A stretch of DNA of 45,423 nt from a virus: IMG/VR virus record IMGVR_UViG_3300031578_000093, positions 1 to 45,423 of that record; one strand, 5' to 3'. Position numbers and translations under genes: made by a program. The notes beneath the pieces were generated by a model, which did no database searches, was not told the origin of the DNA, and worked only from the letters and a program-made list of their open reading frames with translations. Shown in pieces: positions 1 to 39,347 of the stretch; the stretch's first letter is position 1; the number at the start of each line of letters is the position of its first letter.

Positions 1-127
1 TTCCAACATTATTGCTGCACAGATTAGAATGAATAGAGTGCAATCACAGAACATTCTAAACCAATCATCTACTGTGATTGACATAGCTATATCTACACTA
101 GCTATGATTAATGACAGTGTTAGGAGT
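1..127. repeat. Window-end overlap: exact 127-bp copy of 45297..45423
   Basis: Read base by base: ttccaacattattgctgcacag...atgacagtgttaggagt is identical at both window ends; unique length 45,296 bp. Confidence 0.95.
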
Positions 128-295
128 AGGAGTTGCATTACTTTTCCTTTTCATCCTAAGTTCACAAGCAATATCATTAAGACAAGTTCCAAATCTCCTC
201 TTAAAAAATCCACCACGCCATGTCTTATCTTTAAATGACCTATAATTACCGCGCCTGCCACACTTCTTACATGTTACTCTATAGTCTTTAGGCAT
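98..295 (-). CDS. Small Cys-rich (zinc-ribbon-like) protein, 65 aa
   Basis: ATG ORF in the co-oriented minus-strand gene train; CKKC plus a distal Cys pair; starts 3 nt after the stop of 299..484. Confidence 0.55.
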   Translation of the reverse strand: MPKDYRVTCKKCGRRGNYRSFKDKTWRGGFFKRRFGTCLNDIACELRMKRKSNATPTPNTVINHS

Positions 296-298
296 TAC

Positions 299-484
299 TT
301 ACTCTTCTTTAGCTTCAAAAAACTTAGCATCAGGGCCACAGTAATCATTCATTGTAAATGTTCTAAACTGAAAACACGGTTGGAGTCTTTTAGTGCCAGT
401 CACAGGGTTAGTGTATTCACTTTTAAAACACTTAGGGTAATGTGGCTCACCATTTTCATGCTTACAGTTAATACAGAGTTTCAT
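299..484 (-). CDS. Small Cys-rich protein, 61 aa
   Basis: CINC...PKC...C...C pattern; tightly packed in the minus-strand train. Confidence 0.55.
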   Translation of the reverse strand: MKLCINCKHENGEPHYPKCFKSEYTNPVTGTKRLQPCFQFRTFTMNDYCGPDAKFFEAKEE

Positions 485-486
485 AA

Positions 487-621
487 CTAATTCATCCTAT
501 TCACTGACATAATCAGTTTAGTATCAAGATAAATCTGAATCCATAGCATCATAGCTTCTGTGCTACTATTACATTTATCATGCATTAGCATAGGAATATC
601 TATGATATTAGCATACATCAT
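487..621 (-). CDS. Possible small ORF, 44 aa (hand-translated, below ORF-track cutoff)
   Basis: MMYANIIDIPMLMHDK...; fills a 157-nt gap and stops 2 nt before the next ATG, but SD spacing is poor. Confidence 0.25.
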   Translation of the reverse strand: MMYANIIDIPMLMHDKCNSSTEAMMLWIQIYLDTKLIMSVNRMN

Positions 622-640
622 TCCTGTGACTGTAGCGTGA

Positions 641-823
641 TTAATTATCTTCTTCACCATATTCTACTTCACTTTCGCTAAACAATTCATTACCACATTC
701 TGCACAGTAATCACCTTCCATGACCTCATCACCTGCAAAAATAGGCTCTGAAAAGTGCTGCGCACAGCCAGGACAATAAATTTCACCATCACAAACGTAG
801 CCGATTACATCGTAAGATTTCAT
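641..823 (-). CDS. Small zinc-ribbon protein with acidic C-tail, 60 aa
   Basis: CPGC and CAEC pairs; ESEVEYGEEDN tail. Confidence 0.6.
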   Translation of the reverse strand: MKSYDVIGYVCDGEIYCPGCAQHFSEPIFAGDEVMEGDYCAECGNELFSESEVEYGEEDN

Positions 824-836
824 CTCTTACTCTTTA

Positions 837-1034
837 CTAAATTCCAATATAAACATAGCCGCATGACCTTAATTCTTCCATTTCATAATGAGGCTTTGAA
901 ATATAACCTCCACTATCAAATCCTAACATAGTATGAACATTTTTAATCAAATCATATTCACTATGTCGGTCTGTAATTACCTGATGATTCTGTGGCATCT
1001 CTTGCAATTTTGTGATTAGTTCTTTTACAGTCAT
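837..1034 (-). CDS. Small protein, member of MT(V)KELIxKLQE paralogue family, 65 aa
   Basis: N-terminus MTVKELITKLQEM resembles 45033..45236 (MTVNKLIQKLQEL) and 44204..44395 (MTKKELIKFLEP). Confidence 0.6.
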   Translation of the reverse strand: MTVKELITKLQEMPQNHQVITDRHSEYDLIKNVHTMLGFDSGGYISKPHYEMEELRSCGYVYIGI

Positions 1035-1048
1035 CTCTTACTCCCTAT

Positions 1049-1264
1049 CTAGTCAATATGCCCAACTTCTATTCTTACTTCTCTAATTGAAAAGTTTTCA
1101 GACTTAAACATTTCAATATACTTATCAAACGACCTACTATTTGTTTCTAACCAAGCGTATCTTATATCGCCACCAATTACGCGATAAGGATAACCTCCAC
1201 TGTGCTGGTCTTTACCTACAAAAGCACCATTGGGGTAAACTAGGCAATAATAGTAATATATCAT
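1049..1264 (-). CDS. Hypothetical protein, 71 aa
   Basis: ATG ORF, 14-nt gap to the downstream gene in the train. Confidence 0.5.
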   Translation of the reverse strand: MIYYYYCLVYPNGAFVGKDQHSGGYPYRVIGGDIRYAWLETNSRSFDKYIEMFKSENFSIREVRIEVGHID

Positions 1265-1286
1265 CTCTTACTCCTTTGCGCTACTA

Positions 1287-1532
1287 CTAGTAAGAACCCC
1301 TTGCAATTTTATCTTCAATAATAACTGCTACGGCCTTATCAATTAGTGAACTTATTTCCTTATCTGTAAGTCTTTTAGCAAGATATAGTTCTACTGCTTT
1401 TTCTACTTTACCTCTGTAATTCTCCATTGCTTTTGAAGCAATTTCGCGTGTTACAGCATTTAGTTTCACACTAAACTCTTTAGTTACAGCCTCAATAATT
1501 AGCTTTTCATCCATTTCAATTGTGAATCTCAT
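1287..1532 (-). CDS. Hypothetical helical protein, 81 aa
   Basis: ATG ORF in the gene train; Lys/Glu/Ala-rich. Confidence 0.55.
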   Translation of the reverse strand: MRFTIEMDEKLIIEAVTKEFSVKLNAVTREIASKAMENYRGKVEKAVELYLAKRLTDKEISSLIDKAVAVIIEDKIARGSY

Positions 1533-1553
1533 TGTAGTTTCTCCTTGTGTTTG

Positions 1554-3206
1554 TTATTTGTTTTGTCTTTGTTTGATAATACCTTCACTCAGTCTCTTAA
1601 TAATATCAGACTGATTCCAAGTAATACCTTCATTACTCATAACAGCATTAAACGCAACTCGCTTCTCATTTACTATGTCAGCTAGAATATTATCTACTGT
1701 GCCTTCTGCTGTCATATACGTTGCGGTAACACTATCCGCTGTCTGTCCGATACGAATAAAACGTCCCTCTGCCTGTTCTTCATTAGCAGGGTTCCATTGT
1801 CTCTCATGCACAATACAATCACTACATGACTGTAGATTTAATCCCTCACCCGCTGCTAATGTAGATGCGATTAGAATACGATGCGCGTCGTTAAACTTCT
1901 CTTGTGTATGGAATCGTTCCTCACTATCCATCTCACCAGTAATCTTTAATGGTGCTAACATTCCATTATTTTGTAATTTACACCATTCTACTAGGACTTT
2001 AAATATTGCATCACCAACGTCTTTATGATGCACGAACACTACAATTTTTCTATCAGTTTGGTCTATAAACTCTTGAACAAATTCAATTGTAGCTGGTATT
2101 TTCGCGCGTCCTGTTGCATGTCGCATTTTTGCTAGTGCGGCGAGTATATTGCCGCCTTCTTTAAATGAATCTTCTTCTCCACTAATGACTGCCTGATTAT
2201 ATATCCTTATAAAATCGTTGAGATAAATTTCATATTCTTCCTTGCCATACTTATCCATTTCCACATACTGTAAATGTCTATCAATGAGTGGTAGTTCTGG
2301 CATTACTTCGACGCGCTCCTTACGAATCAATATATCAGATGTAAGTTTTCTAAAATCATCAATACGACGTATTCCACCTTCTTTATACTTAGCTCCATTC
2401 CAATAGTAATCAACCCATTGACTCTTGAATGCAGCGAAGGAATAGAACTTCTCTGGTGCTAGAATATTTAGTGCAACGAAAAATTCACTCCCACGATTTT
2501 TCCAAGGTGTGCCACTCATGGGAATGACATATTCACCACATTCCTTAACTAAGCGCCGCACTTCTTGTGTTCGTGCAGAGTCAGGGTTCTTAATCTGCTG
2601 GCACTCATCTAGAATTAGTGATTTAATACCTACATCATAAAACTTCTGTAAATCGAAACGACGTAGCAGGTCATATGATACAATATAACCTTTAAACATT
2701 GGTAGTAATTCATCTTTAGCAGTTTCAATTATCTGTGGAGCATAGAGTGGACTAATCCATCTTACTATCTCTTTGAAGAACTGAAACTTTAGAGATGATT
2801 TACAAACAATTAGATACTTTAATGCTTCTGGATGGAATTTAAGCCATGCTAATCCAATAATAGTTTTACCTAGTCCTTGCTCATGGAATAGGCCGAATCT
2901 GCCTAAGTTATGTTCTATTGCTCTAGCAGAATCAATCTGATAGGAGAACATCCTATGTTCACTGCACCGAACACAGGTATTCTTATTCCATTCATGCTGA
3001 CAATTCTTAACTTCGTCAATCCATGAATTGCTAACTATAGTCTCATATGGATTTTGCTTAGGTAGAACAGTAGTAATTAAATGCCCACATTCAAGATAAG
3101 AGAATTTAGTCCCATTGAACTCAAAGGATGTTTTCTCTTTTTTAACTTTGCCACACGTAGGGCATTTATCATGTAATGTGGTGATACGGGGAGGAATTTC
3201 TGGCAT
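1554..3206 (-). CDS. SNF2-family helicase with N-terminal zinc ribbon, 550 aa
   Basis: GLGKT (motif I), LILDECQ (DExx, motif II), GEGLNLQ and QAEGRFIRIGQ (motifs V/VI); N-terminal CPTC...C..H. Confidence 0.9.
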   Translation of the reverse strand: MPEIPPRITTLHDKCPTCGKVKKEKTSFEFNGTKFSYLECGHLITTVLPKQNPYETIVSNSWIDEVKNCQHEWNKNTCVRCSEHRMFSYQIDSARAIEHNLGRFGLFHEQGLGKTIIGLAWLKFHPEALKYLIVCKSSLKFQFFKEIVRWISPLYAPQIIETAKDELLPMFKGYIVSYDLLRRFDLQKFYDVGIKSLILDECQQIKNPDSARTQEVRRLVKECGEYVIPMSGTPWKNRGSEFFVALNILAPEKFYSFAAFKSQWVDYYWNGAKYKEGGIRRIDDFRKLTSDILIRKERVEVMPELPLIDRHLQYVEMDKYGKEEYEIYLNDFIRIYNQAVISGEEDSFKEGGNILAALAKMRHATGRAKIPATIEFVQEFIDQTDRKIVVFVHHKDVGDAIFKVLVEWCKLQNNGMLAPLKITGEMDSEERFHTQEKFNDAHRILIASTLAAGEGLNLQSCSDCIVHERQWNPANEEQAEGRFIRIGQTADSVTATYMTAEGTVDNILADIVNEKRVAFNAVMSNEGITWNQSDIIKRLSEGIIKQRQNK

Positions 3207-3213
3207 TACTATG

Positions 3214-3375
3214 TTACCTATAATAACAATAGTTACTTAGAAAGTTTCTATATGCCATAAAATTCAGTGGATTAAAGATGTTAAGTGACCACCATGCACA
3301 GGTAAGGCAAGTTTCATCTAGATAGATGTTAATATAAGATGCGCGCAGTTTCTTACCGCAGATTGAACATCTCAT
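3214..3375 (-). CDS. Small zinc-ribbon protein, 53 aa (hand-translated)
   Basis: MRCSICGKK...CLTC; ATGA overlap with the stop of 3372..3575; AGGTGG SD-like upstream; stops 8 nt before the SNF2 start. Confidence 0.5.
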   Translation of the reverse strand: MRCSICGKKLRASYINIYLDETCLTCAWWSLNIFNPLNFMAYRNFLSNYCYYR

Positions 3376-3575
3376 ACTATTCCACCTACTAGTGGCTCAT
3401 AAATCCAACCTACTACACCATCATAAACCAGTCTAACTCTCTCACCTGTAGCAAGTGAGAAACTAATTTTCCATATTGTTTCGTCATTATCTGCTGCTGC
3501 GATTGCCAGTGCTAAAGTTTCATAGTAGTTAATACCGTGTGATTCGCTGCGCGTCTGAACTTGGAAATTAGTCAT
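3372..3575 (-). CDS. Hypothetical protein, 67 aa
   Basis: ATG ORF in the gene train, 11-nt gap to the upstream gene. Confidence 0.55.
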   Translation of the reverse strand: MTNFQVQTRSESHGINYYETLALAIAAADNDETIWKISFSLATGERVRLVYDGVVGWIYEPLVGGIV

Positions 3576-3586
3576 TGTGTTAATCC

Positions 3587-4330
3587 TTACTTTTTACCGG
3601 CACCCTGTAACATATTAGCTACTTGCTGTTCTGCTAACTTAATAGCTTGCTCTTGACTAATCTTTCCAGCCTCAACAGCCTTAGCATAAATAGCATTATA
3701 AACAGATTGCACTACTTTGTTAGTGCTCGGAATCTTACTACTCTTTTTTGGCTTAATTGGCTCTGGTGACTTATAACGTAGGTCAGATTCCTTGAATTGT
3801 GCTCGCTGTTCTAACTTTAGTTTAACTACAGTTTCATTTAAGAATACCTGATTCGCTTCGGCGCGTGCTACCATGCTAAGACGAGTCGCGCCAAGATGCA
3901 TAATGACAGAACGTAATTTTTCAATGCGCGCTTGCACAGTCTTAGCTAGTGTTAGTTGCTTATCTTCGATGGTATTATCTGATTCAATACGATTCTTAAT
4001 TTCAGCTACAGAGATAGTCTCTGCATTGAAAAATTCTTCTCTAGAACGAAGTGACTCATTAGAATCAATTTCGCGCACCAATTCGGCTACCTTTTTCATG
4101 GTAGCATCTAACTTTTCTTCAGGAGTTAGAATAGCCTGAATAGGCTCGATTGGAGTGATAGTCTTTTCACGGTCAGCACAAGACTTGCACATAAGAATAG
4201 AACCGATTAATTCACAATCGGTATTCTTACCGCAAGACTCGCAATCTGTTATACCGTGCTCTTTTTCTATACGTGAGCAGGTAGCACATTGTAGAGTATC
4301 TAGACGTGATGGCACAAATGAATGATTCAT
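3587..4330 (-). CDS. Zinc-ribbon plus coiled-coil protein, 247 aa from ATG 4330 (longest start is TTG 4360)
   Basis: CATC, CESCGKNTDC and CKSC motifs, then a long Lys/Glu-rich helical region; function not recognised. Confidence 0.7.
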   Translation of the reverse strand: MNHSFVPSRLDTLQCATCSRIEKEHGITDCESCGKNTDCELIGSILMCKSCADREKTITPIEPIQAILTPEEKLDATMKKVAELVREIDSNESLRSREEFFNAETISVAEIKNRIESDNTIEDKQLTLAKTVQARIEKLRSVIMHLGATRLSMVARAEANQVFLNETVVKLKLEQRAQFKESDLRYKSPEPIKPKKSSKIPSTNKVVQSVYNAIYAKAVEAGKISQEQAIKLAEQQVANMLQGAGKK

Positions 4331-4347
4331 TTTGTCTCTTATGGAAT

Positions 4348-4535
4348 GTTGACAACTCAATACTGTGTTCTACCTGCTAGATATATAATCTAACAGTTTC
4401 CCTTGAAGTTAAGTGAGTCATCCAAGGGCGACCGATTATTTCACTACTTTTTTCCAATTTGCTCGGTAGTGTGCTACTTGCTCAGGGTAGCTATTTATCG
4501 GTCCTAATAGTAGAACACAGTATTCAGTTGTCAAG
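4348..4535. repeat. 26-bp inverted repeat (4348..4373 / 4510..4535, 24 of 26 complementary) enclosing nested stems
   Basis: gttgacaactcaatactgtgttctac vs gtagaacacagtattcagttgtcaag. Inner stems: gaccgat 4430..4436 / atcggtc 4497..4503 and cccttg 4400..4405 / caaggg 4423..4428. Confidence 0.85.
4507..4534 (-). promoter_or_regulatory. Candidate sigma70-like promoter TTGACA-N16-TACTAT inside the right arm of the inverted repeat
   Basis: -35 at 4534..4529 and -10 at 4512..4507 on the minus strand; would give a roughly 170-nt structured leader for 3587..4330. Confidence 0.4.
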
Positions 4536-4644
4536 TAACTAGTTTCATCTTAGTATCCAATCTAACATGAGAAACTAGTAAACTATGTTAGAATGGTATG
4601 ATTACTTTTAATACTTAGGCAATCGCATTAGAATCTCCAATCCA

Positions 4645-4672
4645 ATACTAACAGAGTCTAGCAGAATGTCAA
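4645..4672 (-). promoter_or_regulatory. Candidate sigma70-like promoter TTGACA-N16-TAGTAT
   Basis: -35 at 4672..4667 and -10 at 4650..4645 on the minus strand, in the non-coding stretch downstream of the HNH gene. Confidence 0.35.
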
Positions 4673-4680
4673 GTGTTATT

Positions 4681-4812
4681 TTACCACACCCACCAAAGCC
4701 AGTGATAAACATGAGGCTTATGAATAGTCATTATGTTTATCACTCTGTAAGGTATAAGACGAAACCTTCTGAATTTTGCGTATGCTGAACGGACCGGCAT
4801 TCTAATAAGCAT
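4681..4812 (-). CDS. Possible small basic, Trp-rich peptide, 43 aa (hand-translated)
   Basis: MLIRMPVRSAYAKFRRFRLIPYRVINIMTIHKPHVYHWLWWVW; GGGAG SD 8 nt upstream of the ATG; contains a perfect 11-bp hairpin (4702..4743). Confidence 0.25.
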   Translation of the reverse strand: MLIRMPVRSAYAKFRRFRLIPYRVINIMTIHKPHVYHWLWWVW

Positions 4813-4843
4813 ATAGATTACTCCCATACGATGATGTTACGCA

Positions 4844-5278
4844 TTACTTCGTGTAGTCTTTAGTCCTGCTACCCTTACCGAAGAAACATTTTCTACCACG
4901 ACGCATAGCTGATTCCCTATAGCACCGCACCTTCTGTAATGTTTCACCATATGTATACTTGCGTTTGATTAGATTTATCATAATAGTTCCATCATCTATC
5001 AGAACATGCACTAGATGATGGCATCCACTACAAAGCACCATAGTGTTGTTTCTCATCTTCACGCCACCTACACCTTTCGGGTGTATATGGTGACGATGTA
5101 ATAGCTTACTTGCGTGCTTTTCTAGTGGTGTAAATCCACAAACTTCACATCTTAACTTGGCACCTTCGGAGTCCCGCTGCCCCTCCGCTCTAGGCCCGTC
5201 GCCTTCCCGCTCGGAGTCCAATGTCCCGTCCGGCGCTAAGTCGTTGCCTAGACGGTCCTTGGCCCCTTCACTACCCAT
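4844..5278 (-). CDS. HNH endonuclease, 144 aa as longest ORF; catalytic core starts near residue 44
   Basis: CEVCG...HRHHIHP...NN...CSGCHHLVH: two CxxC pairs plus a His-Asn-His core. The N-terminal roughly 43 aa are low complexity and encoded by the left repeat arm. Confidence 0.85.
   Translation of the reverse strand: MGSEGAKDRLGNDLAPDGTLDSEREGDGPRAEGQRDSEGAKLRCEVCGFTPLEKHASKLLHRHHIHPKGVGGVKMRNNTMVLCSGCHHLVHVLIDDGTIMINLIKRKYTYGETLQKVRCYRESAMRRGRKCFFGKGSRTKDYTK
5174..5212 (-). repeat. Left array of 11-bp-phased motifs (CCGCT(C) on plus = GAGCGG on minus)
   Basis: Motif starts at 5174, 5185, 5196 (degenerate ccgtc) and 5207. Confidence 0.85.
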
Positions 5279-5285
5279 ACCCTAT

Positions 5286-5314
5286 AATATACGCCCATGA
5301 GCCCCTCTTGTCAA
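5286..5314 (-). promoter_or_regulatory. Sigma70-type promoter TTGACA-N17-TATATT directed at the HNH gene
   Basis: -35 at 5314..5309 and -10 at 5291..5286 on the minus strand. The -10 ends 7 nt before ATG 5278, which implies a leaderless or near-leaderless mRNA. Confidence 0.6.
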
Positions 5315-5334
5315 GTGTCACCTAGAGAGGACAC
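5315..5334. promoter_or_regulatory. Operator-like quasi-palindrome GTGTCA-N8-GGACAC (copy a)
   Basis: gtgtcacctagagaggacac directly abuts the -35 of the HNH promoter. Confidence 0.55.
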
Positions 5335-5364
5335 CATCCATATTGTTGTATTATGATATATAAT

Positions 5365-5382
5365 AAAAAAAAAAAAAAAAAA
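5365..5382. repeat. A18 homopolymer at the dyad centre of the palindromic element
   Basis: Counted: 18 consecutive A in a very AT-rich core (about 5335..5400). Confidence 0.95.
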
Positions 5383-5413
5383 TAAGAAAGAACGAAACAA
5401 CACACTAAGGGGA

Positions 5414-5433
5414 GTGTCACCTAAATAGGGCAG
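5414..5433. promoter_or_regulatory. Operator-like motif GTGTCA-N8-GGGCAG (copy b, one half-site degenerate)
   Basis: gtgtcacctaaatagggcag; mirrored to copy a about coordinate 5374. Confidence 0.45.
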
Positions 5434-5530
5434 TGGGGTAGGACGATAGGGGTCCATATATAGAGGTATACCTAGTCAAGTTATAAGTCCACTAGAATCA
5501 GTGACTTACGAGCGGACGGCATGTTGGAAC

Positions 5531-5574
5531 GGGAGCGGGAATCGAGCGGGACGGGAGCGGAACCGGAGCGGGAA
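5531..5574 (+). repeat. Right array: four tandem 11-bp units gggagcgggaa / tcgagcgggac / gggagcggaac / cggagcgggaa
   Basis: GAGCGG starts at 5533, 5544, 5555 and 5566 (exact 11-bp phasing); weaker copies at 5510 and 5578. Confidence 0.9.
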
Positions 5575-5587
5575 TGTGACGGGATGA

Positions 5588-5607
5588 ACATCATCTAAAT
5601 AGGACAT
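5588..5607. promoter_or_regulatory. Operator-like motif ACATCA-N8-GGACAT (copy c, degenerate)
   Basis: acatcatctaaataggacat, 30 nt upstream of the -35 at 5638; its centre tctaaata matches the cctaaata of copy b. Confidence 0.4.
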
Positions 5608-5637
5608 TGATTTTTCGACTCCTAAGCGAGAAAAGAC

Positions 5638-5666
5638 TTGACAAATGACCGACCGAAGCCTATACT
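5638..5666 (+). promoter_or_regulatory. Consensus sigma70 promoter TTGACA-N17-TATACT
   Basis: ttgaca 5638..5643, 17-nt spacer, tatact 5661..5666; followed by AGGAG (5693..5697) and ATG 5706. Confidence 0.75.
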
Positions 5667-5705
5667 ATAGACAGTGGTAATTAAGCCACGGAAGGAGTCA
5701 AGCCA

Positions 5706-6080
5706 ATGAAGGTCGAGACTGGCGAAGGAACGATTCGGGCTGGTGACAAGTCGGCCACCGTAAACAAGGAATCTGTTACTTTTCAGGTTCCTAACGACAT
5801 CATCTACAAGTATCAGTGGGATGCTTTGGAAGATGGTGACATCGTTGTCGAGAGTGAGCATGTTAAGGCGGAGGAAGTTCTTAGTGCGGTTAATACCGTG
5901 CGGAAGAATAACGCTCGTCAGAACTCTTACATGTCGGCTCTCGCACCTTACAAGCCTGACACGATGAGTCAGGAAGACCGTATCGAGGTTGCTAAGCGTA
6001 ACCTCTTGCAGGCTAAGGTTCCTGCCGAACTTGTCGAGCAGACCATTTCCGCCATGCGGGCGCAGGTTGCGAGTCTCTAA
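5706..6080 (+). CDS. Hypothetical protein, 124 aa, in a stand-alone plus-strand cassette among minus-strand genes
   Basis: Own consensus promoter, AGGAG SD 8 nt upstream and an intrinsic terminator downstream; the protein is not recognisable by eye. Confidence 0.75.
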   Translation: MKVETGEGTIRAGDKSATVNKESVTFQVPNDIIYKYQWDALEDGDIVVESEHVKAEEVLSAVNTVRKNNARQNSYMSALAPYKPDTMSQEDRIEVAKRNLLQAKVPAELVEQTISAMRAQVASL

Positions 6081-6102
6081 CATCATCGTTAGTAGATAAG
6101 AA

Positions 6103-6145
6103 AATACCGGGAACGGACTAATAATCCGAACCCGGTATTTTTTTT
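6103..6145 (+). terminator. Rho-independent terminator, possibly weakly bidirectional
   Basis: aataccggg (6103..6111) pairs with cccggtatt (6131..6139), with an inner cgga/tccg stem, followed by T8 (6138..6145). The minus-strand side has only TTTT. Confidence 0.75.
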
Positions 6146-6147
6146 GT

Positions 6148-6315
6148 TTACTTGATTTTGCCTTTAATCCATTTACACTCTGTTTCCAGAATGGAAATAT
6201 AGACTATGGCAATCTCAAACTCGCTCATATTTGGAAGTGATTGCACAATTCCAATCATGATACGTTTGTGAGACTCAAGTCTCTCCAAAACCTGTGATAG
6301 TTCCAATTCTCTCAT
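6148..6315 (-). CDS. Hypothetical small protein, 55 aa (hand-translated)
   Basis: MRELELSQVLERLESHKRIMIG...; GAGGTG SD 5 nt upstream; last gene before the convergent terminator. Confidence 0.5.
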   Translation of the reverse strand: MRELELSQVLERLESHKRIMIGIVQSLPNMSEFEIAIVYISILETECKWIKGKIK

Positions 6316-6324
6316 AGTGTCACC

Positions 6325-6525
6325 TCATACAAAGAGTTTACAAGCGCCGTAAGACTTGACGATGTTGCAGTTATTCAAGTGATTGACATGGCTGACACGA
6401 TGCGCGTTTACCATTAGTCCACTGTGAGGTAAGAGAATACCTCGCAACGGAGCGGCACCACAATAGGGACAATGGCGCTTATCTCGGTGATAGTGAGCGG
6501 AACAGATTGCACACTGTTTGACCAT
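6325..6525 (-). CDS. Small zinc-ribbon protein, 66 aa from ATG 6525
   Basis: MVKQCAICSAHYHRDKRHCPYCG: two CxxC pairs. The start was chosen 4 nt after the stop of 6530..6724; the track gives a longer, overlapping start at 6660. Confidence 0.6.
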   Translation of the reverse strand: MVKQCAICSAHYHRDKRHCPYCGAAPLRGILLPHSGLMVNAHRVSHVNHLNNCNIVKSYGACKLFV

Positions 6526-6529
6526 TGTG

Positions 6530-6724
6530 TTATTCTCCATAATGACAGATAGCGGTGATACGCGACTGGAATTTGTCACGGTTGAAACGTGGGCTATCCA
6601 ATTCCATTTCAAGCGTAAGACGTTTTTGAAGGTCATAGATAGCATCGACGGCGTTCGCATTTGTAGATGCTAGCAGCGCGCCAGCGATACAGGCTGCAAT
6701 TCTCTCGTAATCTTTTCGTGTCAC
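6530..6724 (-). CDS. Hypothetical protein, 64 aa (GTG start)
   Basis: GTG preceded by a GGGAGGGG SD-like run; GC-richer codon composition like its island neighbours. Confidence 0.55.
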   Translation of the reverse strand: MTRKDYERIAACIAGALLASTNANAVDAIYDLQKRLTLEMELDSPRFNRDKFQSRITAICHYGE

Positions 6725-6852
6725 TTGTCACCCCTCCCAATCGATTCAAGATGCTGACGGATAGAGTGTAGCACGTTAGTCGTGCATAGCTTACACTTCA
6801 CTTGCACCTGCCTTGTGATTATAGACTCATTAGACTGCACCTTGAAACTCTG

Positions 6853-7014
6853 TTAGTTCTGTTTACACTTCAAACGTGTAAAGCCGTAAGGCAATTTACC
6901 TGCTTGCACGCCCAGAGTTACAGGTAGATTATCATATTCGATGGCCGACCGCAATTCTGCAATGGCCTGTTCTACCGCTCTCTTAGGACCGTCTAACACT
7001 AGAGTCTTTGTCAT
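6853..7014 (-). CDS. Hypothetical protein, 53 aa from ATG 7014 (the track start 7041 is TTG)
   Basis: First ORF downstream of the leftward promoter at 7096..7124. Confidence 0.5.
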   Translation of the reverse strand: MTKTLVLDGPKRAVEQAIAELRSAIEYDNLPVTLGVQAGKLPYGFTRLKCKQN

Positions 7015-7095
7015 TGTTGCACTTGTCCAATCCAGGTGCAATCTAATCAGTCTACAATCTATTTAGTTGTCAATGAACCCTGCGCGACTGGTAAC

Positions 7096-7124
7096 AATAT
7101 ACATCGTCACTAGTCGCTTGTCAA
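7096..7124 (-). promoter_or_regulatory. Sigma70-type promoter TTGACA-N17-TATATT for the leftward early genes
   Basis: -35 at 7124..7119 and -10 at 7101..7096 on the minus strand. Confidence 0.6.
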
Positions 7125-7126
7125 TA

Positions 7127-7159
7127 CCTTTGTAATATATATTACTTTGTATTACAAAG
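7127..7159. promoter_or_regulatory. AT-rich nested palindromes just upstream of the leftward promoter
   Basis: gtaatatatattac (7132..7145) and ctttgtattacaaag (7145..7159) are perfect palindromes; ctttgtaat 7127..7135 pairs with attacaaag 7151..7159. Confidence 0.5.
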
Positions 7160-7399
7160 TTTCATTCCATACTACTCTAATACTAATGATGATGCTGATG
7201 ATAATGATGGCATCACATCATCCACTACATCATCGGACCCCGTATGGGCATGTTGAAGGGTCCCATCTGAGGAAAACCGGAAGGGAACATTGTCCTCCAT
7301 CGATGGGTGATAGTTTTATTGATTCTAAATTACTACATCATAGAGTCTCATATCATATGGATGTTAGAAAAAATTTTGGAAAAATAATAATCTGAAGGG

Positions 7400-7419
7400 G
7401 TGTCCACTTTTGAGGACAC
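7400..7419. promoter_or_regulatory. Operator-like palindrome GTGTCC-N8-GGACAC (copy d)
   Basis: gtgtccacttttgaggacac, 38 nt upstream of the -35 at 7458; shares the aagggg(a)gtgtc left flank with copy b. Confidence 0.55.
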
Positions 7420-7457
7420 TTATGATAAGTCCTTTGGAATCAGTAGTTTAGTCCCTC

Positions 7458-7486
7458 TTGACAAGGGGGGAGAGATGACCTATACT
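7458..7486 (+). promoter_or_regulatory. Consensus sigma70 promoter TTGACA-N17-TATACT at the head of the rightward operon
   Basis: ttgaca 7458..7463, 17-nt spacer, tatact 7481..7486; same hexamers as the 5638 promoter. Confidence 0.7.
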
Positions 7487-7563
7487 TCTCTTAGGGTGTA
7501 GGGCTGCGCTCAATTATTATAAATCAGTCCATATGATAGGAATTATAGTTATGGTCAGGGATA

Positions 7564-8115
7564 ATGCCATTAGGTATAGTTCCGGATGAGATATTTGATA
7601 AAGAGATAGAACACGAGAAGGATGTAGTTAAGACTCCTATCGTTATTGATAAAGAGCACAGTGGTAGAAGGAATGGTGATAAGGCAGTTCCCCAAGAACT
7701 ACGTAAGTTATTAGGTGAAGAAGCTACAGTTAATGGTAGGAAGAGTGCAGTAGCATTAGGAGAATCATTTGGTGTAAGTCATGATTCAGTAGATGCATAC
7801 ACTAAAGGCGCTACATCATTAGCTACCTATCATAAGCCGCAAGAAGATTTAAAGTCCCATCTAGAAAAAGTTAAAGAACGAATCACTTCTAAAGCTAGTA
7901 GAACACTTCTCGGCGCACTTGATTCAATAACTTTAGATAAACTTGCGGGAGAAAAGCCTCGTGATGCCGCAGGCATCGCTAAGGATATGTCTGTCATCAT
8001 TCGTAATATGGAACCTGAAGCTGGAGAAAAGACACATATTGGTCCAAATTATGTATTCTATTCACCAGTGATGAAGAAAGAATCTGACTTTGAGATTATT
8101 GAGATAAAGGAATGA
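7564..8115 (+). CDS. Putative DNA-binding (HTH-like) protein, 183 aa; a regulator or small-terminase role is not resolved
   Basis: RKSAVALGESFGVSHDSVDAY looks like a helix-turn-helix; first gene after the 7458 promoter. Confidence 0.55.
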   Translation: MPLGIVPDEIFDKEIEHEKDVVKTPIVIDKEHSGRRNGDKAVPQELRKLLGEEATVNGRKSAVALGESFGVSHDSVDAYTKGATSLATYHKPQEDLKSHLEKVKERITSKASRTLLGALDSITLDKLAGEKPRDAAGIAKDMSVIIRNMEPEAGEKTHIGPNYVFYSPVMKKESDFEIIEIKE

Positions 8116-10585: not shown

Positions 10586-10793
10586 TATGGACTATCAGAA
10601 ACTTATAGATGAAGCAAATGCACGTTCTGCTAAACTCTACTTGCATAGACAGCAATTACAGATGCAAGCACAGCAGATTCAGATGCAATCTACTCAGGTT
10701 GAAATGGATATGCTTAAGTTGGATGGTGAGATTGATTCTCTAAAGAATCTTCTGGTGATGGAGTCACAGAAGAAGGAAGAGAATAATGGCTAA
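10578..10793 (+). CDS. Coiled-coil protein, 71 aa
   Basis: Gln/Leu/Met heptad-like sequence LHRQQLQMQAQQIQMQSTQVEMDMLKL. Confidence 0.55.
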   Translation: MTNMDYQKLIDEANARSAKLYLHRQQLQMQAQQIQMQSTQVEMDMLKLDGEIDSLKNLLVMESQKKEENNG

Positions 10794-11586
10794 TAGTATA
10801 TTTCTTTTTCCTTTTATTGGTGACAAAGTTACTCCCGGTCCAATAACTATAGATGGACCATTAACTCTAATTAAGAATGCTATTGGTGTAACTTCTGCAC
10901 CAGTATTAAGTTTAGTTAATAATACTCCAGCAGCAGCAGGAGCGCAGCAGTATTCACCAGGATTATCTCAGATAGGACAGGGATGGAAAACCAATGCTAC
11001 TGCTGGTAGTCAACCTGTAGAAGTTAGATGGGAAATAAGACCTGTTCAGGGCGCGGCGGCGCCGACGTTCACCTATCACCTCATGGGGCGCGTGAATAAT
11101 GGGGCGTGGGACAATCTCCTTAGGATAGATAGTGTCGGGAATGCGACATACTACGGTTCCCTAATCGGCACGTCTAACGTGTTCACAGGCGCATCGGCCT
11201 ATTTCTCTTGGAATGGACGTAGTTTAGCTTTTTCTCCTGTTGACGGCGCCGTGTCATTTACGACATCGGACCCACTGGTTAGTGGTATTCGTCTCCAGTT
11301 TGCCGCCGCCCCCACCATCGCCAGCGGTTTTGGAACTACACCATCTATTACAGCAGATTCTACAGATACAGCAGGACAAGTTAATGTAGGAACTGGTGGA
11401 GCTGCTAGTGCAGGAATAATTAATTTTGCTACTACATGGGCTTCTGCACCATTCGTAGTTGCTATGAATGCTAGCACTGGATTAGTTCTTAAAGCTATAG
11501 CTACTACTACTCAATTAACTATTACTTCTTCGGCAGCATTTACGGCTGGTGACTTAATTAATTGGATTTGCATTGGAGCTAATTAA
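10786..11586 (+). CDS. Putative tail-fibre-like structural protein, 266 aa, with an internal GC-rich mosaic segment
   Basis: Gly/Ala/Thr/Ser-rich beta-type composition. 11047..11333 is visibly GC-richer than both flanks. Confidence 0.5.
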   Translation: MANSIFLFPFIGDKVTPGPITIDGPLTLIKNAIGVTSAPVLSLVNNTPAAAGAQQYSPGLSQIGQGWKTNATAGSQPVEVRWEIRPVQGAAAPTFTYHLMGRVNNGAWDNLLRIDSVGNATYYGSLIGTSNVFTGASAYFSWNGRSLAFSPVDGAVSFTTSDPLVSGIRLQFAAAPTIASGFGTTPSITADSTDTAGQVNVGTGGAASAGIINFATTWASAPFVVAMNASTGLVLKAIATTTQLTITSSAAFTAGDLINWICIGAN

Positions 11587-34972: not shown

Positions 34973-35046
34973 TGGTGCTCCCGTCAAGAATCGAACTTGA
35001 ATCGGTCGGTTATAAGCCGACAGCTCTACCATTAAGCTACGGGAGC
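34973..35046 (-). tRNA. tRNA with anticodon UAU (Ile, AUA-reading), 74 nt with encoded CCA
   Basis: Hand-folded: acceptor GCTCCCG/CGGGAGC, D arm GCTT-AATGGTA-GAGC, anticodon stem GTCGG/CCGAC with loop CTTATAA, T arm TCAAG-TTCGATT-CTTGA, A73, CCA. Confidence 0.85.
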
Positions 35047-39270: not shown

Positions 39271-39347
39271 TGGTGCCCCACCAGAGATTCGAACTCTGAC
39301 TTTACTGTTCTTAAGACAGTTGCCTCTGCCAGTTGGGCTAGTGGGGC
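39271..39347 (-). tRNA. tRNA with anticodon UAA (Leu by anticodon) but a short 5-nt variable loop, 77 nt with encoded CCA
   Basis: Hand-folded: acceptor GCCCCAC/GTGGGGC, anticodon stem ACTGT/ACAGT with loop CTTAAGA, variable AAAGT, T arm CAGAG-TTCGAAT-CTCTG, A73, CCA. The D stem has only about 3 bp. Confidence 0.75.

Follow-up and report, generated by a model that had tools for sequence, protein, structure and literature searches.

Phage T7 has an early region with host promoters (A1-A3), gene 0.3 and RNase III sites, and parC of plasmid R1 has two sets of five 11-bp ParR sites, directly repeated and ~40 bp apart, that flank a promoter. Iteron-type origins are marked by short, helically phased repeats beside an AT-rich stretch, and the repeat sequence is specific to the replicon (PMC5043065). 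Resemblances to all three systems are found in a GC-rich stretch, roughly 5160-7130, of a phage genome of 45,423 nucleotides (nt), IMG/VR record IMGVR_UViG_3300031578_000093, the whole of which was analysed and is called the window. A sequence-only reading had singled out this stretch, together with an HNH endonuclease gene at its left edge, as an accessory island with its own promoters, perhaps horizontally acquired; the name island is kept here for convenience. It is probably the native immediate-early control region of a phage family and not an insertion. Its central element (5160-5590), in which two arrays of 11-nt repeats and a poly-A run surround a promoter, may be a replication origin, an assignment to which our analysis gives slightly less than an even chance. 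For the account as a whole, namely a native control hub with an origin element and codon tuning of its early genes, the balance tilts in favor.

As at lambda ori and the iteron origins of P1, F, RK2 and R6K, a phased array here adjoins an easily melted AT-rich sequence and a nearby promoter. The units of those origins are 17-22 bp long, whereas those of the window are 11 bp and contiguous. The element also differs from them in having two mirror-image arrays ~290 bp apart (~340 bp from start to start), G-rich boxes, hairpins and a long central poly-A run, and no Rep, O or DnaA-like initiator was recognized. With the T7 early region, the island shares a cluster of near-consensus host promoters driving small, poorly conserved early genes, one conserved and mildly acidic early protein, and an RNA duplex like an RNase III site. 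Unlike in T7, transcription diverges from the middle of the map and not from one end, no phage RNA polymerase was found among the ten large open reading frames (ORFs) scanned, and the conserved protein, p124, resembles neither Ocr nor any other known protein in sequence or fold. The numbers recall R1 parC, with about five 11-bp repeats on each side of a promoter; in contrast to parC, the arrays are inverted and ~290 bp apart, no ParM/ParR-like gene occurs among the scanned ORFs and, unlike the plasmid, the phage looks strictly lytic. The kinds of system involved, an iteron-type origin and a host-promoter early region, are already known, while the architecture of the central element and two unannotated protein families, p124 and p64, are new. 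It is conceivable, with the chances somewhat against it, that mirror-image 11-bp arrays with co-evolving arms, G-boxes, hairpins and a central poly-A run constitute, along with a temporal split in codon usage, an undescribed architecture common to the whole family.

Gene order and promoters

The window represents a complete genome that assembly closed into a circle: the source contig (ENA ERZ27256808, k141_1515356) is 45,606 nt long, with ends that overlap by 183 nt and map, by arithmetic on locus coordinates, near 20.3-20.5 kb of the window. Five more contigs from other samples carry the island at 99.97-100% identity, making six assemblies in all, in one orientation. Searches of GenBank phage DNA with the island and with window positions 1-8000 gave no match, and the terminase is at best <=30% identical to those of cultured phages. 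IMG/VR holds at least 271 related stretches with terminases 55-65% identical to that of the window, several of them on contigs of 44-49 kb. Relatives were compared by tblastn of window proteins against the best 80 of these at least 271 loci, and individual loci are cited by L-number. The phage belongs to a large uncultured family with at least 930 p124 homologues, genomes of ~45 kb and no cultured relative above 30% terminase identity. Three loci, L087, L088 and L089, represent a separate phage type that is 62-67% identical to the window, and a metagenome scan yielded just two short contigs, both of the L087 type.

The island lies at the point where two blocks of genes diverge, which is also the global minimum of the cumulative GC skew (5.0-5.5 kb). 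The leftward block encodes an SNF2 helicase, a PD-(D/E)XK nuclease, an AAA_24 protein, a DUF3987 protein and a fusion of uracil-DNA glycosylase (UDG) to PolA, and the rightward block encodes the helix-turn-helix (HTH) protein p183, the large terminase (terL), the portal and structural genes. In relatives with terL 55-65% identical to that of the window, one order recurs: an o3587 homologue, the left array, poly-A, the right array, a p124 homologue, p183 and terL. Among the 80 loci, tblastn found homologues of p124 in 23, of o3587 in 9 and of p183 in 54; the five small minus-strand ORFs of the island had no match, and the HNH gene had one weak match (L077). The features absent from relatives are only the HNH gene, p55, p64 and p53, while the arms of the repeat element, the poly-A run, the promoter and p124 are syntenic. 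On this evidence the core appears ancestral, and the periphery appears to consist of swappable small genes and a mobile HNH nuclease. Because the core is syntenic in distant relatives, acquisition of the island as a whole is not supported. Synteny in relatives, which the sequence-only reading had named as an argument against acquisition, was found for the core and not for the periphery; likewise, its description of the module as fast-evolving suits the HNH gene, several small genes and the slot beside the left arm, but not the arms, poly-A, promoter and p124, which are conserved. The DNA polymerase of the genome (35380-37890, minus strand) is an 836-aa protein in which a UDG-superfamily domain (aa 6-162) is fused to a family A polymerase.

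In the 45.4 kb of the window, TTGACA-N17-TATAAT is matched at 11 of 12 positions only four times, always with a perfect -35 box and a 17-nt spacer. The four sites are a leftward sigma70-type promoter (5286-5314, minus strand, TTGACA-17-TATATT), the promoter of the p124 cassette (5638-5666, plus strand, TTGACA-17-TATACT), which is kept in L087, the promoter of the small-gene operon (7096-7124, minus strand, TTGACA-17-TATATT) and that of the rightward operon of packaging and structural genes (7458-7486, plus strand). The last lies just outside the island, leaving three of the four best promoters within it, as had been claimed. Their number by itself is not unusual, as Markov simulations gave a mean of 2.1 and four or more in 18% of cases; what is unusual is that all four fall within 2.2 kb, each in the right orientation before a gene. 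Equivalents of the leftward promoter were read by eye in L087, L075, L045, L015, L002 and L077. These near-consensus sites support the earlier suggestion of an early regulatory module driven by host RNA polymerase. Leftward from 5314, the polymerase would cross the left arm and enter the slot of the first gene, which is variable and in the window contains the HNH gene; rightward from 5638, it would read the one-gene p124 cassette, which is flipped in the window lineage; leftward from 7124, it would read an operon of four or five tiny genes ending at a two-way terminator; and rightward from 7458, it would enter the late genes.

An operator-like palindrome (5315-5334, GTGTCAC-CTAGAG-AGGACAC; inverted pair I6) abuts the -35 box of the leftward promoter. 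A perfect palindrome occupies the same place in L087, similar ones are present in L075, L045 and L046, and a second copy in the window, GTGTCC-N8-GGACAC, is found at 7400-7420, upstream of the rightward promoter. The two-way intrinsic terminator (6098-6144), between the convergent p124 gene and small-gene operon, folds on both strands, with -29.2 kcal/mol (z=-7.1) followed by U8 on the plus strand and -24.5 kcal/mol (z=-4.6) on the minus strand. The inventory given by the sequence-only reading is confirmed: the island does contain an HNH gene, the plus-strand cassette and a convergent terminator, along with small minus-strand genes, of which that reading had four and our analysis has four or five. 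The 46-nt terminator hairpin (6102-6147) is 100% identical to L087 5777-5822, although its flanks are ~68-77% identical, which could reflect a recombination joint or an additional function of the hairpin. The spacer between the divergent promoters at 7124 (minus strand) and 7458 (plus strand) contains inverted runs of ATGATG/CATCAT repeats (7184-7234), and the equivalent spacer of L073 contains 10-nt-phased TGCACA repeats and many TTCCGGAA palindromes.

Central repeat element

The two arms of the central element are arranged as mirror images: outward from an AT-rich center, each has first a G-rich box, then a short hairpin and then about five 11-nt units. The right array (5510-5587) has two degenerate units and then, from 5533, five units exactly 11 nt apart, in order GAGCGGGAATC, GAGCGGGACGG, GAGCGGAACCG, GAGCGGGAATG and TGACGGGATGA. 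It constitutes direct-repeat family D1, has TRF periods of 11 and 22, and shows an autocorrelation of 0.67 at lag 11 versus 0.24-0.40 at lags 9, 10, 12 and 13. The left array (5165-5235) has four units in exact 11-nt register, with CGCT/CGTC cores at 5175, 5186, 5197 and 5208 and a minus-strand unit of GAGCGGGAAnn, plus one or two degenerate units; it forms inverted-repeat pairs I2, I3 and I14 with the right arm. The inner part of the left arm (5236-5283) contains CTAAGTCGTTGCCTAG, a short motif resembling a palindrome, and, just downstream of the leftward promoter, a box rich in C (in G on the minus strand), and the inner part of the right arm (5408-5508) contains G-rich boxes (5408-5454) and the hairpin TAAGTC-N13-GACTTA (5484-5508). 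At the center, an AT-rich stretch with an A18 run (5340-5389; the run at 5365-5382) is a candidate DNA-unwinding element, being the least stable 50 bp of the genome (nearest-neighbor free energy, dG/bp, -0.979; z=3.46; rank 1). The hairpin is merely 4-6 bp and varies between phages. Its core, CTAAGTnnTTCATT (5233-5255 and 5481-5512), stands on the same strand in both arms, as a direct repeat, and the G-boxes and 11-nt arrays around it are inverted; this arrangement is also seen in L023, L033, L036 and L022.

Comparison with relatives indicates that the layout is widespread, while the repeat sequence differs from phage to phage. On the left side, the order promoter, G-box, hairpin and array is also present in L087, L023, L033, L046, L075, L045 and L077. 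On the right side, a G-box (GGGGAGrGGGrGGG) and then a CTAAGT..ACTTAG hairpin precede the array in L087, L033, L046, L058, L036, L073 and L061. In 21 related loci, the o3587 and p124 homologues are separated by a stretch that includes a poly-A run of 15-45 nt, with the A residues always on the terminase-sense strand, and lag-11 autocorrelation together with direct reading identified 11-nt arrays in at least 12 distinct genomes. The unit is the GC-rich GAGCGGGAA in the window, GGACCGGAAAC in L087, ACAGGAAAG in L023, TAGAATCA in L046, and CCAAGAA alternating with GTAGGAA in L033. Within genomes the arms resemble each other far more than between genomes, with arm-to-arm local alignment scores of 21.4 versus 9.8 and 4-9 versus 0-2 shared 7-mers; in the window, the left arm shares nine 7-mers with the right arm and 0-2 with the arms of other phages. 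The two arms of each genome, thus, co-vary in the sequence of their unit.

Several properties expected of a replication origin are combined in this element: phased sites (five on the right and four on the left, at exactly 11 nt), an adjacent AT-rich stretch that is the least stable of the genome, an internal promoter, and a position at the divergence of the gene blocks and the switch in GC skew. Because 11 bp corresponds to one helical turn, a protein bound to the units would sit on one face of the DNA. A phage protein might bind both arrays in phase and bend or wrap the DNA, which could open the weak AT-rich center and permit bidirectional replication to start there, and transcription from the adjacent internal promoter might assist opening, as at lambda ori and iteron plasmid origins. 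If the element is an origin, an abundant uncultured phage family gains a defined origin, along with a test case for the co-evolution of binding specificity on two arms.

Other observations weigh against this assignment. Gene orientation switches where the cumulative GC skew reaches its minimum, and this confounds the skew signal. Being downstream of the leftward promoter, the left array is transcribed, and a role at the RNA level or a purely transcriptional one is possible. In L015, L002, L017, L068 and L045, the poly-A run and promoter are kept while other repeats replace the 11-nt arrays. Furthermore, the adjoining conserved gene, o3587, has no recognizable initiator domain, and a word-index search with it gave only close, unannotated relatives. 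Its product, with a zinc ribbon and a coiled coil, evolves fast (23-32% identity) and does not clearly co-vary with the repeat unit; a profile search of the PDB returned noise, and a single-sequence structural model (pLDDT 57.6) was unusable.

An alternative function for the arrays would be regulatory only, either as a phased operator for a repressor or activator that switches the early promoters, with phi29 p4/p6 or the omega/ParR-type repeat binders as models, or as a repeat-rich 5' leader RNA. It would account for the fact that the arrays flank a promoter with a palindromic operator, that the same type of operator recurs upstream of the late promoter, that the left array, by the position of the promoter, is transcribed as the leader of the leftward operon, and that repeats also lie between other divergent promoters (7184-7234 in the window; TGCACA in L073). 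However, the leader RNA is no more structured than shuffled sequences (z=-1.0) and, like the rest of the island, matches no Rfam family at E<=1; a GGA motif is missing from the units of some relatives (TAGAATC in L046); and a distance of 50-125 nt separates the right array from the next promoter downstream, a long way for a simple operator. An exclusively regulatory role would also leave the invariant poly-A run and the least-stable center unexplained, and we regard it as unlikely, though a serious candidate. Two specific proposals were considered and rejected. A CsrA-type sponge RNA carrying GGA motifs fails on the relatives with units that lack GGA and on the unstructured leader. A T7/T3-type phage promoter was suggested by the right-arm sequence CACTAAGGGGAG, which resembles the T3 promoter core; because the 836-aa ORF is the UDG-PolA fusion and Pfam revealed no single-subunit RNA polymerase among the ten large ORFs, it was also set aside.

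The arrays could also represent a packaging start (pac), at which the small terminase would wrap the phased arrays and cutting would take place in the AT-rich center. In SPP1-type pac sites, the phasing of the repeats allows the DNA to wrap around a ring-shaped protein. The ends of nine related contigs lie at most 40 nt from the poly-A run (at the locus starts of L043, L058, L068, L072, L073, L017, L054, L061 and L074), full-length contigs of 44.6-46.9 kb among them, which could hint at a physical end of the genome, and a probable small terminase gene lies 1-2 kb to the right as the first gene of the rightward operon. This gene, p183 (7564-8115, plus strand), is downstream of the 7458-7486 promoter and encodes an HTH protein with weak, 434-repressor-like HTH matches. 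Its homologue stands directly upstream of terL in many relatives, and in the window ~4.4 kb of extra genes, including one for a GH5-like protein of 379 aa, are inserted between p183 and the large terminase; p183 probably serves as the small terminase subunit. Short-read assemblies break at long homopolymers, however, which is enough to explain the contig ends, and the contig of the window itself was closed into a circle elsewhere, through the 183-nt overlap near 20.3-20.5 kb. In addition, phages whose repeat units differ have almost the same HTH recognition region (SPSSVSAY) in p183, so that p183 is unlikely to be the specificity partner of the arrays. A pac site is, therefore, improbable, and a possible origin within a probable native control region remains the preferred reading of the element.

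Base composition and codon usage

The impression, gained by eye, that the island is richer in GC than the genome is borne out by calculation. GC content is 0.381 for the whole window and averages 0.383 (standard deviation, sd, 0.026) over 2-kb windows, of which the highest, at 5000-6999, has 0.466, ~3.3 sd above the mean. The repeat arms are the richest part, also as claimed (0.653 at 5157-5280 and 0.626 at 5500-5590), with a trough of 0.38 separating them; to their right follow a plateau of 0.49 at 5600-6090 and a value of 0.445 at 6148-7041. The k-mer check proposed in the same reading pointed the same way, tetranucleotide usage of 5001-7000 relative to the genome being by far the strongest outlier (r=0.358, z=-5.7). 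In contrast, the composition-normalized dinucleotide signature (delta*) of 5501-7500 is unexceptional (z=1.8), with larger deviations in two structural-gene regions. A k-mer outlier with an ordinary dinucleotide signature indicates that the anomaly is one of base composition and not a foreign signature.

Codon statistics are shifted as well. GC content at third codon positions (GC3) is 0.36 in the HNH core, 0.58 in p124 and 0.41, 0.48, 0.42, 0.55 and 0.43 in the other island genes, compared with 0.256 ± 0.047 and a maximum of 0.33 for 25 long genes of the genome. TTA makes up 9% of Leu codons in island genes versus 42% in the rest of the genome (Fisher p=8e-6), and ATA makes up 15% versus 33% of Ile codons (p=0.036); p124 contains neither codon. 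The only two tRNA genes of the window, tRNA-Ile(TAT) at 34973-35046 and tRNA-Leu(TAA) at 39271-39347, both on the minus strand, correspond to precisely these codons, ATA and TTA, which are avoided in the island and heavily used elsewhere.

The high GC content of the island, thus, has two causes, a GC-rich repeat unit and GC-rich third codon positions in the immediate-early genes. Because the units of the arms differ between phages and match within a genome, the extreme GC content of the arms is a property of the window's own motif. Likewise, GC3 of p124 exceeds that of terL in 24 of 24 genomes (means 0.574 versus 0.317), and the GC-richest 400 nt of the locus falls on the p124 homologue in 19 of 23 relatives; this family-wide excess indicates that the GC peak over p124 was inherited and not imported. 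We infer that the immediate-early genes are tuned to the tRNA pool of the host, before phage tRNAs accumulate, and that later genes lean on the phage tRNAs. For other phages, it has been argued that phage tRNAs chiefly serve late genes (PMC12482277). Two other reasons for GC-rich early genes would compete with the proposed tuning: they could avoid H-NS-type silencing of AT-rich DNA, or they could owe their composition to mRNA stability.

The opposing view, that the whole block is a horizontally acquired accessory island of foreign composition, has in its favor the strong deviation in GC content and tetranucleotide usage, the sporadic HNH gene, the absence of relatives of p55 and p53, and the finding that p64 has homologues elsewhere and none in the 80 terminase relatives. 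It is at odds with the synteny of the core in distant relatives, the family-wide GC excess of p124, the ordinary dinucleotide signature and the origin of arm GC in a single repeated motif. Furthermore, neither Pfam nor NCBIfam detected an integrase or recombinase in the island ORFs or in ten of the larger ORFs, the two tRNA genes (at ~35.0 and 39.3 kb) are remote from the island, and long direct repeats flanking it were looked for and not found. Acquisition of the island as a unit, as the sequence-only reading had proposed, is accordingly unlikely; it is largely refuted for 5160-6150, while exchange at the level of single genes is likely for the HNH gene and p64. A sharp anomaly in GC content and k-mer usage within a phage genome need not, therefore, mean foreign DNA, and here marks a conserved control center. 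A second, smaller GC peak (11050-11250, 0.55 over 200 nt), inside the plus-strand ORF 10786-11586, stems from second codon positions (GC2 0.56, GC3 0.29) and, thus, from amino-acid composition, so that its cause differs from that of the island.

p124 cassette and variable genes

The p124 gene (5706-6080, plus strand; GC3 0.58) forms a one-gene cassette and encodes a mildly acidic protein of 124 aa (pI 5.0). The 154-aa ORF opposite it (5622-6086, minus strand) is a spurious mirror ORF of the kind that had been expected from the shifted composition. A profile search found at least 930 members of the p124 family, none with a Pfam domain, and all named "hypothetical protein" except for one stray JGI label (ribosomal protein L44E). 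Comparison of p124 with Pfam, PHROG, NCBIfam and PADLOC gave no match, and a profile search of the PDB gave only noise. An AF2 model of mediocre quality (pLDDT 68) predicts, with modest confidence, a four-strand sheet followed by three helices, and it had no match at E<=0.001 in two Foldseek libraries. When p124 profiles were run twice against the genomes of 185,579 bacterial and archaeal species, neither scan gave a match, as would be expected of a strictly lytic group. In related genomes, p124 is a self-contained unit of promoter, gene and terminator (for example, in L073), and its position and expression signals suggest that it is an abundant immediate-early protein. With hundreds of members, a GC-rich gene and its own promoter-to-terminator unit, the p124 family is, along with the p64 family described below, a good candidate for host-takeover functions.

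The orientation of p124 is rightward in the window and leftward in 23 of 23 distant relatives; the flipped state is also found in L087, L088 and L089. That recombination between the inverted arms operates a switch, turning the promoter or the p124 cassette, could be suspected from this inversion and from the inverted repeats around a promoter, but is highly improbable given that the arms are only 72-80% complementary and built of degenerate 11-nt units, that p124 lies outside them, that the island ORFs and ten larger ORFs (the remaining genes being unscanned) include no recombinase by Pfam and NCBIfam, that the six nearly identical assemblies from different samples have a single orientation, and that the inverted state, being common to the separate L087-type phage, is an old, fixed inversion of one sub-lineage and not a live switch.

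The slot to the left of the left array differs among three close relatives, containing the HNH gene in the window, a hydrophobic ORF of ~47 aa in L087 and an ORF of ~96 aa in L089. The HNH ORF (4844-5278, minus strand, 144 aa) has its domain at aa 44-91 (nt 5149-5006), above the Pfam cut-off (PF01844, 25.9 bits versus 21.4, E=1.1e-5), and matches 15 HNH families in PHROG; its nearest matches in GenBank phages are 37% identical over 60 aa. The gene is sporadic at a fixed site, being present in the window, with a weakly similar HNH-type ORF in the L077 slot, and absent from L087, L089 and other relatives. In this it resembles free-standing phage HNH homing endonucleases, which are small ORFs between conserved genes and present in some relatives. 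It departs from them in that its frame begins at the transcription start site and runs through a repeat arm: the 43 N-terminal codons (5150-5278; GC3 0.67) read through the G-box, hairpin and array before the domain is reached. The ATG lies 8 nt past the -10 box, and the mRNA could be leaderless; the sole internal alternative start is a TTG at ~5224. Because open frames arise easily in sequence of 65% GC, the N-terminal extension may be fortuitous and not genuine coding sequence. In L087, the left array is a non-coding leader.

Of the small minus-strand genes, p55 (6148-6315), with a GAGGTGA ribosome-binding site, is seen only in the window phage; it had no tblastn match in the 80 relatives, is absent from L087 and L088, and matched no protein family. 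The zn66 gene (6325-6525) encodes a 66-aa zinc-ribbon protein (CxxC...CxxC) with weak zinc-ribbon matches in Pfam. Its start is an internal ATG of a 111-aa ORF, and it is annotated as a 66-aa gene on L082 and L086; it is also present in L087 (75% DNA identity) and L088. The p64 gene (6530-6724; 64 aa) has a GTG start and the ribosome-binding site GGGAGGGG. Its family, with the motif MTxKDYExIAAC...LDNPRFN, has 28 representatives at E<=1e-3, and in a MAFFT alignment ~23 of its members are full-length (62-88 aa, ~32-48% identity). No Pfam or PHROG family matched p64 itself, isolated weak matches being confined to a few family members, and the family has no match among GenBank phages. Because the family occurs elsewhere and yet is absent from the 80 terminase relatives, and from L087 and L088, p64 looks like a gene exchanged between phages.

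The p39 ORF (6721-6840, minus strand) likely yields a C-terminal peptide of 26 aa that starts at a GTG at 6801 and has a CxxC..H..H pattern. The C-terminal 25 aa and their DNA are conserved in L088 (MKCKLCETKVLHSVKQHLES...), the peptide is common to L087 and L088, and the upstream part of the ORF overlaps a long-range RNA stem. This stem is formed by a 29-nt inverted repeat (6817-6845 and 7031-7059; pair I1, 86% complementary) that encloses p53/p62 (6853-7041, minus strand), the first ORF of the small-gene operon, which starts at an ATG at 7014 or a TTG at 7041. Minus-strand RNA from 7124 is predicted to form a duplex of ~26 bp, with a minimum free energy of -92.2 kcal/mol compared with -73.5 ± 4.6 kcal/mol for shuffled sequences (z=-4.06; none of 200 shuffles was as stable). 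The duplex around p53/p62 resembles a stem for processing of the RNase III type or a lock on translation.

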